Below, piece after piece: positions 7,969-13,053 of a stretch of 41,666 bases of DNA. Source of the DNA: a virus (Duplodnaviria > Heunggongvirae > Uroviricota > Caudoviricetes). The position numbers and the translations under genes are program-made. Under the pieces are notes generated by a model that made no database searches, was not told where the DNA came from, and saw nothing but the letters and a program-made list of their open reading frames with translations. Position 1 is the stretch's first letter. Every line of letters begins with the position of its first letter. The stretch spans positions 1 through 41,666 of IMG/VR virus record IMGVR_UViG_2526164631_000048; one strand, written 5' to 3'.

Positions 7969-8379
7969 CAAAGCAGTGGCTGTTGTGGTGACCGGTGCTG
8001 ATCTCCGGCTTGCGGTTATTTCAGACTCTCACGGGCGTTTAATTGCCCCGCCGAACAGCTCTTTTCCGCATTAGCTGCAATGTCTTTCGCGCATCAGCCT
8101 GCGCATTCACCACAACGCTGAGAGCACTTAGCCAGTTACGGCACCACACTTTGTCGCGGTTCCATAAATGCCCTCATCGTTGCACCCTGGTCTCTTCCCA
8201 GGTGTCAAACCGAACCGCCACGCTGGTTAGGCGTCTTATCAGCATCATCATTGACTTGCACATTCCGGCTACCTGGTTTGTTTGCCCGAGCAAGGAGTGG
8301 ATTGTCCCCTTTAACGTCCCCAGACCGCTAACGACGCATGTGCCATACGCCGTGTTACAACCAAATTTTGTTTAATCTT

Positions 8380-8437
8380 GCCTGTGACATGTTTCTTTTA
8401 GATACATTATGTATCTCAAGGGTACATTGTCAAGTAT
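8380..8437 (-). promoter_or_regulatory. Candidate OL/pL region
   Basis: Palindrome GATACAttaTGTATC (8401..8415) and GGGTACA motif shared with the OR region; position left of cI terminator. Confidence 0.3.
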
Positions 8438-8460
8438 AAAAAAACCTGCCGAAGCAGGTT
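8438..8460 (-). terminator. Rho-independent terminator downstream of cI
   Basis: On minus strand: aacctgc-ttcg-gcaggtt followed by U7. Confidence 0.6.
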
Positions 8461-8471
8461 ATAAATATTGA

Positions 8472-9146
8472 TTAGGCCTTTATTTTGTATCTTCTTGGTT
8501 TTCCTGAGAAAATTACTGTACCAATTATAGAGCAATTACCGTTGATCTTAATGTAAGGTTCAGGCCAGTTTGGGTTTAATGCTTTGAGGTAACGCTGTGT
8601 TCCATCTTCTATCAACCGCTTAAAGGTGGTTTCGCCTGTATCGTGCATCAATGCAATAACGTCGTCACCGTGGCAGGCAGGGACTTCAGGATCTACAAAA
8701 ATCATGTCTCCCGGGCGGTACTCATCAATCATTGAATCACCAATCACCCGCAAGATATAAGTCATTTCGCCACAGGGTACAGGGCAGGGATAAGTTTCTG
8801 CTGTGCTCAAATCAACCTCAGAATAGCCAACTTCTTTCCATGCTCCGGCCTGTACCCATGATATGACAGGGACTAACGTTATTTGTTTGTTAGTAATTGA
8901 AACATCAGGTTTTTTTGTGATGTTTGTTGTCTGGTGTTCTTGATCAAGCCATCCGACAGGCAGGTCGAAACATTTTTCGATGTGCCGTGCCATGCTGTCA
9001 CCGATATTTTTAGTAGCACCATCTCCCATAAACCTGCTGGTCTGGGTTGGCTCGCGATCAATCATGGTGGCAAAGGAAGAATTCCCGCCAACACCATCTC
9101 TCAGTTTTCTGGCGTTAGACCGCCGGATGTCATGGACTGTTTTCAT
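8472..9146 (-). CDS. CI-like prophage repressor (HTH + LexA/S24 peptidase domain)
   Basis: 224 aa; C-terminal GDSM and K..D motifs of S24 self-cleaving repressors; divergent from cro-like gene. Confidence 0.8.
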   Translation of the reverse strand: MKTVHDIRRSNARKLRDGVGGNSSFATMIDREPTQTSRFMGDGATKNIGDSMARHIEKCFDLPVGWLDQEHQTTNITKKPDVSITNKQITLVPVISWVQAGAWKEVGYSEVDLSTAETYPCPVPCGEMTYILRVIGDSMIDEYRPGDMIFVDPEVPACHGDDVIALMHDTGETTFKRLIEDGTQRYLKALNPNWPEPYIKINGNCSIIGTVIFSGKPRRYKIKA

Positions 9147-9468: not shown

Positions 9469-10032
9469 ATGAGGCTAACCGTGGGTAAGCATCACTGGAA
9501 AGTAGAAAAACAGCCTGAGTGGTACGTGAAAGCTGTCAGAAAAACTATCGCGGCGTTGCCGGGGGGTTACGCTGAAGCTGCTGAGTGGCTGGATGTAACA
9601 GAGAACGCTTTATTCAACCGCCTTCGTGCAGATGGCGATCAGATTTTCCCGCTGGGATGGGCAATGATTTTACAGCGCGCGGCTGGCACTCACTACATTG
9701 CGGATGCTGTCGCACAGTCTGCTGGTGGGGTGTTTGTATCGCTTCCTGAAATTGAGGAAGTAGAGAACGCCGATATAAACCAGCGCCTGCTGGAAGTCAT
9801 CGAACAGATCGGGAGTTACTCAAAGCAGATTCGTTCGGCAATCGAAGATGGGGTAGCGGAGCCACACGAGCAGACAGCAATTAATGATGAGTTGTATCTG
9901 TCAATTTCGAAGCTCCAGGAGCATGCAGCACTGGTCTACAAAATCTTTTGCGCTCCAGAAAAGAGTGACGCCCGCGAGTGTGCAGCTCCGGGCGTCGTGG
10001 CGTTTTGTGTCTGTGGAGAAACTAACGCATGA
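9469..10032 (+). CDS. Hypothetical regulator at the CII position (possibly YdaT-like)
   Basis: 187 aa ORF directly after cro-like gene; family assignment uncertain. Confidence 0.4.
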   Translation: MRLTVGKHHWKVEKQPEWYVKAVRKTIAALPGGYAEAAEWLDVTENALFNRLRADGDQIFPLGWAMILQRAAGTHYIADAVAQSAGGVFVSLPEIEEVENADINQRLLEVIEQIGSYSKQIRSAIEDGVAEPHEQTAINDELYLSISKLQEHAALVYKIFCAPEKSDARECAAPGVVAFCVCGETNA

Positions 10033-10177
10033 ACAGTTTAACGGCAAATAACCGTTTGTCGCAACAGCTGGTGGTCAGCGTCGCTGAACACCTGTTGTTA
10101 CGGCATGAATGCAGATTACCAAATCACCTGGCTGTAAGTAACCACAGAGAACTTTACCTGACTGTGGGGGGCGAGTT

Positions 10178-10357
10178 GTGCAGGAACTTAACCGCTGGTT
10201 TCGTGACGGAAGAGGACTTTATGTTCATGTTATTCGTTGGGAGCCAGAAACACAGCGCGTTATCTATCTTCGCAAAGACTACCCGCATGAGTGCTTTAGT
10301 CCTTTGTGGAAATTCAGGCGTGATTTTGTTGAGTGTGAAGGACCACCAGCACATTGA
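10178..10357 (+). CDS. DUF4222-family small protein
   Basis: GTG start after G-rich RBS; WFRDGRGLYVHVIRWEPETQRVIY...ECFSPL pattern; sits in a different frame from the long ORF 10029..10865. Confidence 0.45.
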   Translation: MQELNRWFRDGRGLYVHVIRWEPETQRVIYLRKDYPHECFSPLWKFRRDFVECEGPPAH

Positions 10358-10631
10358 TTCTGCCATTCCGGGACGTTACACTGTTCAGGCACCTTATAAA
10401 GCGGGTGCCGGGATTGGCGTCCTGGAATTGATCAAGGCGATATATGACGCGCCAGCGTCTTTTTTATCGTCCGCATTTGCTCACATCAAAGTTATGGTGG
10501 GCTGGGCGGGGGCATCGAAAGATGCGCCGGTTTCCTTGATCACCGGTTACGCCAACCCCGTTCAGTTCACCACCAGCGAAATTGGCGTTTCCGGTGGTGG
10601 AAGTATTTCACCGATCAAGGAGGCTGCCATC

Positions 10632-10865
10632 ATGGCTACTGTCCCAGCCCTCACTCGTCTGAATGATGAAGACTTACATAAACTCAGTTATGTAACAACT
10701 GCACTACGTGCTCTGCGCAAGGTAACTCTTTCGGATCCCCAGGCGCATCAGGTTTTGGTAGAAACCCTTCTTAACTTGCAGGCTGAACGTATTCGTCTGG
10801 CGGATAAGGCTAATTTTCATATTCACCGTCTCCTGAATATCAGCGGAGGGCATCGTCATGCTTAA
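10632..10865 (+). CDS. Small hypothetical protein (77 aa)
   Basis: Strong AAGGAGG RBS 8 nt before ATG; stop overlaps next start (ATGCTTAA). Confidence 0.4.
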   Translation: MATVPALTRLNDEDLHKLSYVTTALRALRKVTLSDPQAHQVLVETLLNLQAERIRLADKANFHIHRLLNISGGHRHA

Positions 10866-11094
10866 TCCGTTGAGCCTCAATATTCGCCGTTTACTTCAGC
10901 GTAAAAAAACATCAATTCCTACAGTTGGGCAGTGGTACACCACGCCTGCAGGGCATGTTCTACGTGTTAGCCTGGTTGACCGTGAATGCCAGAAGGTGAT
11001 TTGTGAACCGCTGGGCCGTAATTACCGCGTCAGTATGCCGCTTATAGCCTTTCGCTCCGGAAAAAACATGAAGCATCTCGGAGGTGCAGCATGA
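10858..11094 (+). CDS. DUF4222-like small protein (paralog)
   Basis: WY..P.GHVLRVSLVDRECQKVICEPLGRNYRVSMPL pattern similar to 10178..10357. Confidence 0.45.
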   Translation: MLNPLSLNIRRLLQRKKTSIPTVGQWYTTPAGHVLRVSLVDRECQKVICEPLGRNYRVSMPLIAFRSGKNMKHLGGAA

Positions 11095-11909
11095 GTATGG
11101 AGCTGATGGTTAAAGCGATGAAAATTCGAGTGGGTAATCCATTGCGAAAACTGGTTCTGATCAAGCTGGCTGATAATGCCAGCGATCAGGGTGAGTGCTG
11201 GCCCAGCTATCAGCATATCGCTGATCAGTGCGAGATTAGCAAACGTTCTGTGATGAATCATATTGCGGCCCTCTGTGAGTCCGGGCTGGTAAAAAAAGTC
11301 ACCCGGAAAGGTGAAAAAGGTAACTCAAGTAATATCTATCTCCTTCATCTGGATGGTGCAGGAGATTCACTAGGGGGTAGTGCAAATAATTCACTATCTG
11401 GTGCAGCAAATTCACCAGGTAGTGCAGGAGTTGCACCAGGGGGTAGTGCAGGAGATTCACCCAGAACCAGTCACTCTTTTGAACCAGTCAAAGAACCAGT
11501 CAATGAACCAATAGCTGTTGGTGCATCAGTTGATGAGTCCGTGCGAGTTCGTTCAAACCGACCGGAATACTCTCCGGAGTTTGAGCAGGCATGGCTGGCA
11601 TATCCCAAACGTGCTGGTGGCAATTCAAAATCTGCAGCCTTCAAAGCCTGGAAAGCCCGTTTGAACGAGGGGGTAAACCCCGAAACCATGCTGGAAGGTG
11701 TGAAACGCTACGCGGGCTGGGTATCTGCGATGGGTAACAGCGGCACACAATTTGTGAAACAGGCTGTCACGTTCTTTGGTCCGGATCGTCATTTCGAAGA
11801 ATCCTGGGAAGTTCCTGCGATATCTGCAGCCAGACGCGAGGACCCGTACTTCAAAGCCAGTTACGACAACGTGGACTACAGCCAGATCCCGGCAGGATTC
11901 AGGGGGTGA
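11091..11909 (+). CDS. Replication initiator (O-like; N-terminal winged-helix DNA-binding domain)
   Basis: N-terminal LVLIKLADNASDQGECWPSYQHIADQCEISKRSVMNHIAALCESGLV; internal Gly/Ser/Ala linker encoded by iteron-like repeats. Confidence 0.65.
   Translation: MSMELMVKAMKIRVGNPLRKLVLIKLADNASDQGECWPSYQHIADQCEISKRSVMNHIAALCESGLVKKVTRKGEKGNSSNIYLLHLDGAGDSLGGSANNSLSGAANSPGSAGVAPGGSAGDSPRTSHSFEPVKEPVNEPIAVGASVDESVRVRSNRPEYSPEFEQAWLAYPKRAGGNSKSAAFKAWKARLNEGVNPETMLEGVKRYAGWVSAMGNSGTQFVKQAVTFFGPDRHFEESWEVPAISAARREDPYFKASYDNVDYSQIPAGFRG
11355..11515 (+). repeat. Iteron-like tandem repeats inside the initiator gene (candidate ori)
   Basis: Five imperfect ~20-bp repeats (ggtagtgcaggagattcac-like), then 3 perfect GAACCAGTCA 10-mers plus one degenerate copy. 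Confidence 0.55.
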
Positions 11910-12400
11910 TCATGAGTCTTTTGAATGAAGTTCAGAAATTCATTGAAGCCCATCCGGGGTGTACTTCCGGAGACATTGCGGATGCTTTTGCAGGTTACTC
12001 ACGGCAGCGCGTTCTGCAGTCAGCAAGCAAGTTACGTCAGAGTGGGCGTGTGGCTCACCGTTGTGAAGGAGATACACGCAGACATTTCCCACGCCTGACT
12101 GAGAGAGCGCAGGAGCCGGAACTACAACCAGTTCGTGAAACCAGACCTGTGCGCAATTTCTATGTCGGCACTAACGATCCCCGGGTGATTTTGTGCCTGA
12201 CCCGCCAGGCGGAAGAACTGGAGTCCAGGGGCCTATACCGTCGTGCTGCAACGGTGTGGATGGCGGCATTCCGTGAAAGCCACTCCCAGCCAGAACGAAA
12301 CAATTTTCTGGCGCGTCGTGAGCAGTGTTTACGGAAAAGCAGCAAGCGCGCTGTATCGGGTGATGAGTGGTATCTGTCAGGGAATTACGTGGGGGCTTAA
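11906..12400 (+). CDS. PerC-family transcriptional regulator-like protein
   Basis: C-terminal LESRGLYRRAATVWMAAF...RREQCL resembles PerC domain. Confidence 0.5.
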   Translation: MIMSLLNEVQKFIEAHPGCTSGDIADAFAGYSRQRVLQSASKLRQSGRVAHRCEGDTRRHFPRLTERAQEPELQPVRETRPVRNFYVGTNDPRVILCLTRQAEELESRGLYRRAATVWMAAFRESHSQPERNNFLARREQCLRKSSKRAVSGDEWYLSGNYVGA

Positions 12401-13053
12401 TGAGTAATAAATATTGCCAGGAGCTGGTGGAACTGCGGAACAAACCAGCCCATGAACTGAAGGAAGTGGGTGATCAGTGGCGCACGCCGGACAACATTTT
12501 CTGGGGAATTAACACCCTGTTTGGCCCGTTTGTTCTGGATCTGTTCACTGACGGTGATAACGCCAAATGTGCCGCGTATTACACGGCGGAAGACAACGCG
12601 CTGGCGCATGACTGGTCAGAACGCCTTGTGGAGCTTAAAGGTGCTGCCTTTGGTAATCCTCCATACAGCCGCGCCAGTCAGCATGAGGGGCAATACATCA
12701 CCGGCATGCGTTACATCATGAAACATGCCAGTGCCATGCGTGATAAGGGCGGGCGCTATGTTTTCCTGATCAAAGCTGCCACCAGCGAAGTGTGGTGGCC
12801 GGAAGATGCGGACCATATTGCTTTTATTCGCGGGCGTATTGGTTTTGAACTGCCTGCCTGGTTTATCCCGAAGGATGAGAAGCAGGTGCCGACAGGCGCT
12901 TTCTTCGCTGGTGCTATTGCTGTTTTTGACAAGACCTGGAAGGGACCGGCAATCAGCTACATCGGGCGCGATGAACTTGAGGCATGTGGTGAGGCCTTTC
13001 TGGCGCAGGTTCGCCAGCAGGCAGAAAAACTGGTCAGGGAGATGGTGGCATGA
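12400..13053 (+). CDS. Phage DNA N6-adenine methyltransferase (Dam-like)
   Basis: NPPY catalytic motif (FGNPPYSR); TAATG overlap with upstream gene. Confidence 0.7.
   Translation: MSNKYCQELVELRNKPAHELKEVGDQWRTPDNIFWGINTLFGPFVLDLFTDGDNAKCAAYYTAEDNALAHDWSERLVELKGAAFGNPPYSRASQHEGQYITGMRYIMKHASAMRDKGGRYVFLIKAATSEVWWPEDADHIAFIRGRIGFELPAWFIPKDEKQVPTGAFFAGAIAVFDKTWKGPAISYIGRDELEACGEAFLAQVRQQAEKLVREMVA

Follow-up and report, generated by a model that had tools for sequence, protein, structure and literature searches.

A DUF4222 gene and a putative antisense-RNA immunity cassette under one long reading frame of an SfV-like prophage

A 278-codon open reading frame (ORF) in the early right operon of an SfV-like lambdoid prophage covers, in a different frame, a 59-codon gene of the DUF4222 family and, further downstream, two RNA genes. 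The window, that is the whole stretch of DNA analysed, is 41,666 nt long (IMGVR_UViG_2526164631_000048) and all coordinates are window positions. Taken together our data make it likely that the interval comprises the DUF4222 gene, an antisense-RNA immunity cassette of the P4/P1 type, a 77-aa gene regulated by it, a beta-barrel gene and an ORF resembling P4 eta. The original prediction for this DNA had regarded the long ORF as a misleading frame hiding three small genes; all four ORFs (the long one and those of 59, 77 and 78 aa) are present where it placed them.

Over positions 9950-11150 identity is 99.6% to Shigella phage SfV and 100% to a prophage of Escherichia coli FDAARGOS_1059. The comparative set consists of 86 related loci, with 64 distinct DNA variants of 9950-10649. 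The principal features are:

10029..10865, plus strand: 278-codon ORF (SfV orf37), ATG start; a ymfM-like linker (about 10029-10350), then a P4 eta-like ORF over the cassette, with the 77-aa gene at its end
10178..10357, plus strand: DUF4222 gene, 59 aa, GTG start, out of frame within the long ORF (Pfam PF13973, phrog_1343)
10389..10465, plus strand: IsrK / P4 seqA-like small RNA (sRNA) (Rfam RF01394, 64.2 bits against a gathering threshold of 50, E 6e-13, model positions 1-77 of 77)
10490..10577, plus strand: C4 / P4 CI-type antisense RNA (Rfam RF01695, 82.3 bits against a gathering threshold of 45, E 3.9e-16, model positions 1-87 of 87)
10632..10865, plus strand: 77-aa gene, ATG start, nested in the long ORF and sharing its frame, at the place occupied elsewhere by P4 kil or an antirepressor
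10858..11094, plus strand: 78-aa gene (SfV orf38, phrog_1153), predicted N-terminal helix and small beta-barrel, start overlapping the long-ORF stop

A conserved DUF4222 gene in a second frame

The 59-aa product matches the Pfam DUF4222 model (PF13973) with 51.1 bits (cut-off 27, E 9.5e-14), residues 3-52 aligning to model positions 4-51 of 53, and it matches phrog_1343 over its full length (E 1e-36). PF13973 is present in all homologues of the product. The GTG at 10178 is preceded by a G-rich ribosome-binding site (RBS) with a run of six Gs at 10167-10172, and an RBS ahead of the DUF4222 start is kept in every lineage.

Among the 64 variants of this lineage, 10 of the 12 variable sites within the gene fall at the third codon position of DUF4222, which is the second codon position of the long frame. 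In 61 of these variants the DUF4222 protein is unchanged, whereas the long frame gives 56 different translations. The e14-type lineage behaves similarly, with 13 of 14 variable sites at the DUF4222 third position and a protein that is identical in 55 of 57 variants, while the overlapping frame exists in 27 variants among the 57. Third-position variation and an invariant protein, found in both lineages, show the 59-aa DUF4222 gene to be real and subject to purifying selection. This bears out the prediction of a genuine DUF4222-type gene starting at a GTG behind a G-rich RBS, together with the view that the long frame is of low quality where it crosses that gene.

The AlphaFold2 (AF2) model of the DUF4222 protein (predicted local distance difference test score, pLDDT, 85) is a small beta-barrel of four strands, a helix and a fifth strand, and its fold neighbours in the PDB are generic SH3, KOW and Tudor barrels (E>0.04). 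The sole family member with experimental data is RgdR (ECs1581), a prophage-encoded regulator of enterohaemorrhagic E. coli (EHEC) with a DUF4222 domain, which activates the enterocyte-effacement locus (LEE) and its type III secretion system, represses motility and binds DNA non-specifically (PMC3378721). Like the 59-aa product RgdR is small, basic and prophage-encoded. The likeness is at family level; RgdR has 99 aa and lies in a P4-like cryptic prophage, and it has no reported link to replication modules.

The same overlap occurs in the K-12 prophage e14. Its classical ymfM ORF has 112 aa, opens with MNSLT at the stop codon of ymfL and shares DNA with a DUF4222 gene of 59 aa, the two frames standing to each other as in the window. 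In e14 (locus L087, 2080-2438) the DUF4222 gene has a TTG start and an AAGGAG RBS and is out of frame to ymfM, and the Prokaryotic Genome Annotation Pipeline (PGAP) now annotates DUF4222 alone at this place. Citrobacter, Kosakonia and a metagenomic relative resemble e14 in that the ymfM-like frame runs on from the ATGA until about 20 nt short of the DUF4222 stop codon, ending 10 nt ahead of the replication gene ATG. The window shares the ymfK, ymfT and ymfL neighbours with e14. It differs in that the e14 ORF of 112 aa ends about 20 nt before the end of DUF4222, with no RNA cassette following, and in the unique N-terminal part of the frame, which is unrelated in sequence. This part is coding-like in e14 (2, 6 and 13 variable sites by codon position) and mildly so in the Citrobacter group; in the window it has no codon-position pattern and only 13 of 49 residues are identical to YmfM, so that similarity to YmfM is not supported. 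A phrog_1170 match (E 1.5e-8) is confined to the DUF4222 overlap. The first third of the long ORF corresponds in position to e14 ymfM, and position, start context and frame are all that the two have in common.

The classical K-12 annotation would make the ymfM-like frame the sole real gene over 10029..10357 and DUF4222 spurious. Expression of ymfM does cause filamentation, and ymfM has been equated with the SfiC division inhibitor (bioRxiv 10.1101/2020.11.19.390815); the coding-like N-terminus of e14 ymfM points the same way. Yet the variation in the overlap is nearly all synonymous for DUF4222 and non-synonymous for the ymfM frame, and DUF4222 is 64-100% conserved across genera whereas the ymfM-frame products are unrelated between lineages (the 13 of 49 residues given above). 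Together with the RBS before every DUF4222 start and the demonstrated phenotype of the family member RgdR (PMC3378721), this makes the classical annotation extremely improbable here.

The published work on ymfM used a clone of the whole ORF and a deletion, with no frame-specific mutants described (bioRxiv 10.1101/2020.11.19.390815). The clone, being the whole ORF, therefore carried nearly all of DUF4222 as well, and neither clone nor deletion can separate YmfM from the DUF4222 product. The DNA known as 'ymfM = SfiC' also encodes a far better conserved DUF4222 protein, and we found no paper in the literature linking ymfM with DUF4222.

The RNA cassette, its target boxes and the downstream genes

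The original prediction missed that 10358..10631, far from being an intergenic gap, contains two Rfam RNA genes, IsrK and C4. About half of the positions in this segment vary among relatives, with invariant blocks on both sides, and the variable sites of 10358-10649 are spread 52, 52 and 48 by phase. We attribute this hypervariability without codon periodicity to the two RNA genes, which are the sole above-threshold Rfam matches in the 41.7-kb window. A sub-threshold match to Rfam c4-a1b1 lies at 10376-10428 (21.4 bits), and a match to mir-3116 (21.9 bits against a gathering threshold of 65) was dismissed as noise.

The cassette variants form seven allele clusters, all of which hold both RNAs above threshold, and both RNAs are also present in variants where the next gene is of the Rha family; the cassette is found in 300 phage records. 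The C4 consensus fold from the seven alleles has 28 pairs, eight of them with compensatory double changes. C4 has an acceptor-like stem and a 3' end reading ..CACCACCA. IsrK ends in an intrinsic terminator, with a hairpin at 10446-10459 followed by six Ts, which the terminator scan placed at 10446-10465. The elements that bear on cassette function are:

10354..10382, plus strand: candidate sigma-70 promoter, picked out by eye (TTGATT at 10354-10359, 17-nt spacer, TACACT at 10377-10382, start at G10389)
10429-10437, plus strand: target box b1, TGATCAAGG / UGAUCAAGG, inside IsrK
10494..10496, plus strand: leader AUG (ATGGTGGG) at the C4 5' end, corresponding to the start of orf45 in Gifsy-1
10534-10542, plus strand: C4 specificity loop, CCTTGATCA / CCUUGAUCA, variable, complementary to b1 and b2
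10613..10626, plus strand: target box b2, GATCAAGGAGGCTG / GAUCAAGGAGGCUG, containing the Shine-Dalgarno sequence AAGGAGG (10617-10623) of ATG 10632

The duplex between the C4 loop and b2 is 14 nt long. Loop, b1 and b2 co-vary in all seven alleles; for example, the loop CCGAUAACG occurs with UGUUAUCGG twice and the loop CUUUGGUGA with UCACCAAAG twice. In a cross-matrix of the seven alleles the cognate loop:b1 duplex was the longest and best in every row. Furthermore, the read-through RNA 10389-10640 is predicted to be strongly folded (z -4.65), and its minimum-energy fold pairs the loop with the RBS in cis. A loop complementary both to the RBS of the next gene and to an upstream copy, the three sites co-varying, is the arrangement of P1 immI and of P4-type systems. 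At least seven loop/target specificities occur among otherwise near-identical prophages (window 10424-10634 and loci L086, L037, L063, L009, L022 and L057). The seven allelic specificities suggest a diversification of RNA-based immunity, as between P1 and P7.

We infer promoter use and the repression mechanism as follows. An internal promoter, its start G10389 coinciding with position 1 of the Rfam isrK model, would be followed by the IsrK/seqA-like sRNA with b1 and its terminator and then by the C4/CI-like RNA. In a lysogen C4 would pair with b2 and so block translation of the 10632 gene, and by analogy with P1 and P4 this pairing may also favour termination; IsrK would compete for C4 via b1. 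The loop, b1 and b2 boxes would together set immunity specificity, with at least seven specificities in circulation. Processing of C4 from its leader by RNase P and repression in vivo would proceed as in systems of the P1/P4 type. SfV-type and Stx-type lambdoid prophages would in this way possess a second, RNA-based layer of immunity with at least seven exchangeable specificities. It would lie directly upstream of the replication genes and over an antirepressor-type slot, and would thus bear on prophage induction and superinfection immunity.

The immI region of P1 and P7 (c4 - icd - ant) has the same logic, with a C4-family RNA whose loop pairs with the RBS of the next gene. There the target boxes are duplicated upstream and downstream of the c4 RNA, and allelic changes in loop and targets give P1 and P7 different specificities; these details are reportedly due to Citron and Schuster in 1990. 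The window differs from P1 and P7 in that the downstream gene is neither icd nor ant (NCBIfam gave no Icd-like match), the cassette lies inside an open reading frame of an early replication operon, and the upstream copy of the target belongs to IsrK, an sRNA that ends at its own terminator.

A further counterpart is isrK-orf45-anrP of Salmonella Gifsy-1, for which IsrK, the translated leader orf45 and a processed RNA of about 80 nt from the leader (STnc1160) were shown experimentally (PMC4825925). The two loci share an IsrK with its own terminator, read-through into a structured leader and an ORF starting AUG-GUG, in the window at 10494. In Gifsy-1 IsrK is complementary to the leader and an antirepressor gene follows (PMC4825925). 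The orf45 stop there overlaps the anrP start in another frame, whereas the leader frame of the window runs into the downstream gene; and the regulated gene of the window encodes a 77-aa orphan, though sister alleles carry Rha. The window cassette is homologous to isrK-orf45-anrP and follows the logic of P1/P7 c4 and of P4 CI/seqA/seqC.

In the window the leader AUG at 10494 is in frame with ATG 10632, with no stop between them. In 5 of 5 contexts (window 10494; L173, L174, L175 and L176) the C4 5' end carries an AUG-GUG that shares its frame with the downstream gene, an intervening stop being present in some phages only. The distance from AUG-GUG to the downstream ATG is a multiple of 3, at 126-138 nt, in four contexts (the window, VT2-Sakai, PA2 and Klebsiella).

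The gene that C4 would regulate has its AAGGAGG (10617-10623) 8 nt ahead of ATG 10632. Of its 13 variable sites eight fall on third codon positions, and 17 of 20 variants encode one and the same protein. In sister alleles the same ATG opens a Rha-family antirepressor, whose Rha domain begins about 20 residues in. The cassettes of PA2, VT2-Sakai and a Klebsiella phage are annotated as intergenic, and Rha-, ORF6N- and Bro-N-type genes start from the homologous ATG; PA2 has almost the same sequence as the window in the 25 nt ahead of this ATG, with an in-frame stop 24 nt upstream. Because homologous ATGs start antirepressor genes that have in-frame stops upstream, ATG 10632 is a genuine gene start, and the homologous starts and coding-type variation uphold the third small gene that had been proposed behind this strong RBS. 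Searches with the 77-aa product gave near-identical copies in the same context only, with no Pfam match and no similarity to the Rha of the sister alleles; by eye it shares nothing with P4 Kil past the first three residues (MAT).

A sharp mosaic junction falls at 10649-10656, within the 10632 gene, and another at 10927. Past the sixth codon of this gene the relatives hold either the 77-aa orphan or a 181-aa Rha antirepressor. Similarity among relatives resumes at 10927, inside orf38, so that the N-terminal helix of the 78-aa protein is swapped as well (a 74-aa variant is present in L004).

The 78-aa product had been taken for a second DUF4222-like protein, and this is only weakly borne out. 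On one side stand reciprocal PHROG cross-matches between the two families (E 0.008 and 0.019), a pairwise BLASTP match to the 59-aa product (E 0.017) and matching predicted folds. The two AF2 models (pLDDT 79 for the 78-aa protein) agree in their secondary-structure elements when shifted by +19 residues, which is also the register of the BLASTP and PHROG matches, and 14 of the top 50 BFVD neighbours are common to both models, all of them weak (E 1e-3 to 7e-2). On the other side the 78-aa product has no Pfam match even at E<=1 and so is not a DUF4222 member by that measure, and hhalign gave a probability of 0.8% for DUF4222 against the 78-aa family, both alignments being of low diversity. Searching 1.8 billion representative proteins with the 78-aa family profile gave 24 matches, with a DUF4222 domain in none of the 10 scanned. 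The 78-aa gene overlaps the replication gene directly downstream, a position that DUF4222 takes where the cassette is absent. It is plausible that the 78-aa product is a remote relative of DUF4222 at the level of the predicted fold.

In the Citrobacter, Kosakonia, metagenomic and e14 loci (L088, L089, L091 and L087) DUF4222 abuts and overlaps the O-like replication gene, and these loci contain neither C4 nor IsrK. Since there are lineages with DUF4222 beside the replication gene and without either RNA, the block isrK-C4-(77 aa or Rha)-orf38 is an insertion between DUF4222 and the replication gene.

The long frame and the 'Ash' match

Upstream of 10632 the amino acids of the long ORF are not conserved, but the frame is kept open. 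It has no stops among the 64 variants, for all their 56 translations, and over the cassette in the seven alleles it again has none, compared with 18 and 28 stops in the other two frames. Five lineages keep the ymfM-like frame open, with spacers whose length is 1 mod 3. The stop of the long ORF overlaps the start of orf38, and the stop of orf38 overlaps the ATG of the replication gene. The spacer in question is:

10029..10177, plus strand: ymfL-DUF4222 spacer, the unique N-terminal part of the ymfM-like frame (7, 9 and 8 variable sites by phase)

No significant RNA fold was detected in the spacer (10033-10177, z -1.3), which leaves a structured nut-like or terminator element unsupported.

The architecture is that of the P4 immunity region (alpA - eta/kil - seqA - CI RNA - seqC - epsilon), with the elements in the same order. 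The P4 ORF starts on the alpA stop codon and spans seqA and the CI RNA, and an in-frame ATG after ..EAAIMAT.. gives the 65-aa Kil. In the window the ORF likewise starts on the stop of the upstream gene (ATGA, 10029-10032), has IsrK/seqA-like and C4/CI RNAs recognised by the same Rfam models inside it (10389-10577), and has ATG 10632 in frame, where ..KEAAIMATVPA.. stands at the equivalent place and opens a short nested product of 77 aa; in both systems the 'Ash' Pfam model matches the ORF over the RNA. The phiP27 ORF L16 has the same coupled-start design over its cassette. In P4 the translation of eta is coupled to alpA and prevents termination; the truncated product of eta is Kil (PMC10111431). 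The window differs from P4 in being a lambdoid prophage instead of a P2-dependent satellite, in the upstream extension of the ORF by a ymfM-like linker that overlaps DUF4222 out of frame, in a 77-aa product unrelated in sequence to Kil, and in having the orf38-O replication module in place of a following epsilon-type (PF25738) gene.

The long ORF is not a conventional protein gene, and it is probably not a chance frame either. Since its start lies on the stop of ymfL and the frame stays open, we infer that it is probably translated, like P4 eta, on transcripts from the main early promoter. Such translation would carry ribosomes through the cassette to the replication genes, and their passage would keep expression of the replication genes insensitive to termination and to C4.

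Several observations count against the overall picture of an immunity cassette read through by an eta-like frame. The locus is known here from its sequence alone. The candidate promoter matches 8 of 12 consensus positions, which is under the scan threshold, and the sigma-70 scan of 9950-11150 gave no site. A second pairing of the 'a' type, as with the P1 'a' boxes, was not clearly identified, an 11-nt G-U-rich duplex being found in three alleles only. The kil-like or antirepressor-like role of the 77-aa product is suggested by position, the product belonging to no recognisable family. In this lineage variation in the unique part of the long frame does not look coding (7, 9 and 8), and the lack of stops in the N-terminal third of the long frame within the population falls short of significance (P 0.2-0.5). 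Finally, the VT2-Sakai, PA2 and Klebsiella cassettes carry stops in the equivalent frame, and through-translation is therefore not intrinsic to the cassette.

The last of these points also agree with the model behind the original prediction, in which the long ORF is misleading or due to chance and goes untranslated, and the interval holds three independent small genes, two of them DUF4222 paralogues, with non-coding DNA between. Purifying selection on the DUF4222 and 77-aa frames, an unconstrained long-frame protein sequence, a cassette that is intergenic and stop-interrupted in other phages and the non-significant openness of the frame within the population all fit this model. It ignores the two RNA genes, however, and does not account for the lack of stops over seven divergent alleles against 18 and 28, nor for an ATGA start and frame register that are conserved in five lineages and paralleled in P4 and phiP27. 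Moreover P4 eta is reported to be translated (PMC10111431), and the 78-aa product is not recognised as DUF4222 by Pfam. We regard this model as possible, if rather doubtful. The long ORF was rightly distrusted as a protein, while the idea that it is simply misleading does not sit well with its ATGA coupling, its stop-free passage through seven alleles and its eta/kil architecture.

Returning to an eta-like frame, we tentatively suggest that the two frames may serve two purposes, DUF4222 making a protein and the long frame being translated mainly for the act of translation, as a relay from ymfL through the cassette to the replication genes by which main-promoter transcripts alone would escape immunity. 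As a corollary, the filamentation ascribed to e14 YmfM (SfiC) could be due to DUF4222; we hold this whole proposal as speculative.

The long ORF matches Pfam Phage_ASH (PF10554) with 67.8 bits over residues 117-210, that is nt 10377-10658, and phrog_3960 matches over the full length. The IsrK and C4 RNAs underlie the same nucleotides, and this explains the match. MVGWAG and ANPVQFTTS, the two peptide motifs with the best conservation, are encoded by the opposing strands of the long stem in C4. The Ash hidden Markov model (HMM) scores above threshold across in-frame stops in conceptual translations of the PA2 (34.7 bits) and Klebsiella (30.3 bits) cassettes. In P4 it matches residues 22-85 of an obsolete ORF, 'cI gene product, 137 aa', situated over the CI RNA; the real antirepressor, epsilon, is a member of PF25738 and not of PF10554. 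These P4 features fall within 8168-8705 on the minus strand (L177), where the CI RNA is found as Rfam C4 at 8420-8507. Despite the HMM match, the data do not support Phage_ASH as a translated and selected protein domain, and the 'Ash domain' is the conceptual translation of the RNA cassette.

Current databases would instead have the 'Ash family protein' (PGAP, 10320..10865) or SfV orf37 as a folded regulatory protein in a domain-shuffling network of Bro, Rha and Ash, with the RNA motifs merely lying inside its gene. The HMM scores with Pfam and PHROG, the two indels among alleles that are multiples of 3 and the frame that is open in all alleles are in keeping with this, and PMC10111431 and PMC8951638 treat Ash as a protein domain. 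It is at odds with the lack of third-position bias across the 'domain' (52, 52 and 48), with conserved peptide motifs that are coded by C4 stem strands, with HMM matches running through in-frame stop codons, and with a P4 match over the CI RNA ORF and not over the known antirepressor; nor is there a supporting feature at either the 10320 GTG or the 10287 ATG start. We therefore think a folded Ash protein improbable and favour the RNA cassette as the source of the match. Recent papers still regard Ash as epsilon or as a protein domain whose function is unknown, and a study of P4-like satellites used PF10554 as the profile for epsilon. The Ash model has thus served studies as a marker for a protein, once as a proxy for P4 epsilon, which it does not represent. 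We found no paper in the literature equating the Ash domain with an RNA cassette in lambdoid phages.

Every component of the interval is of a known kind, and the arrangement of a hidden gene with RNAs is already known from P4. What appears to be undescribed is their combination in a lambdoid replication operon, with DUF4222 encoded out of frame, a linker of the ymfM type and an eta/kil-like frame that encloses IsrK and C4; our literature search found no description of it in a lambdoid prophage.

Existing annotations and neighbouring genes

Three annotations of the interval conflict. SfV has the entire 278-codon ORF as orf37, 'immunity region'; PGAP has DUF4222 at 10178..10357 (WP_001341559), an 'ash family protein' at 10320..10865 and a hypothetical protein at 10858..11094; and the RAST-type record of phage 2H10 has a 181-aa 'antirepressor' alone. 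In mEp460 the long ORF is taken as 'Rha', 383 aa. Across the matching records examined the labels are 'Ash family protein', 'transcriptional regulator', 'immunity region', 'Rha' and 'antirepressor'. The expectation that automated callers would pick the long ORF thus holds for SfV orf37 and mEp460 'Rha' but not for PGAP, which already calls DUF4222 and a shorter 'ash family' CDS. NCBIfam gave no match for the 59-, 77-, 78-, 123- and 181-aa products. In the 100% identical RefSeq record NZ_CP066032.1 (L001) the counterpart of 10389-10577 carries CDS features alone, with neither C4 nor IsrK annotated, apparently owing to the covering 'ash family protein' CDS.

The genes that flank the interval are:

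8472..9146, minus strand: cI-like LexA-family repressor gene, to the left of the interval and followed by the cro-like ymfT and then ymfL
9469..10032, plus strand: ymfL / CII-like gene (Pfam Phage_CP76, E 5.5e-14; phrog_101)
11091..11909, plus strand: O-like / DnaD-like replication initiation gene (Pfam HTH_36, phrog_270), at the downstream end of the chain of overlapping starts and stops

PGAP places the ymfL start at 9481, and the TGA stop of ymfL overlaps the long-ORF ATG in the ATGA at 10029-10032. From ymfL to a PerC-like gene each junction is an overlapping stop and start (ATGA 10029-10032, ATGcTTAA 10858-10865, ATGA 11091-11094 and GTGA 11906-11909), and the chain is unbroken only when the long ORF is counted. 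The PerC-family activator gene (11906-12400) lies 3' of the replication gene and is followed by dam, a phage N6-adenine methyltransferase gene (12367-13053). As with the DUF4222 protein RgdR, a link to the control of LEE in EHEC has been drawn for prophage regulators of the PerC/Pch type.

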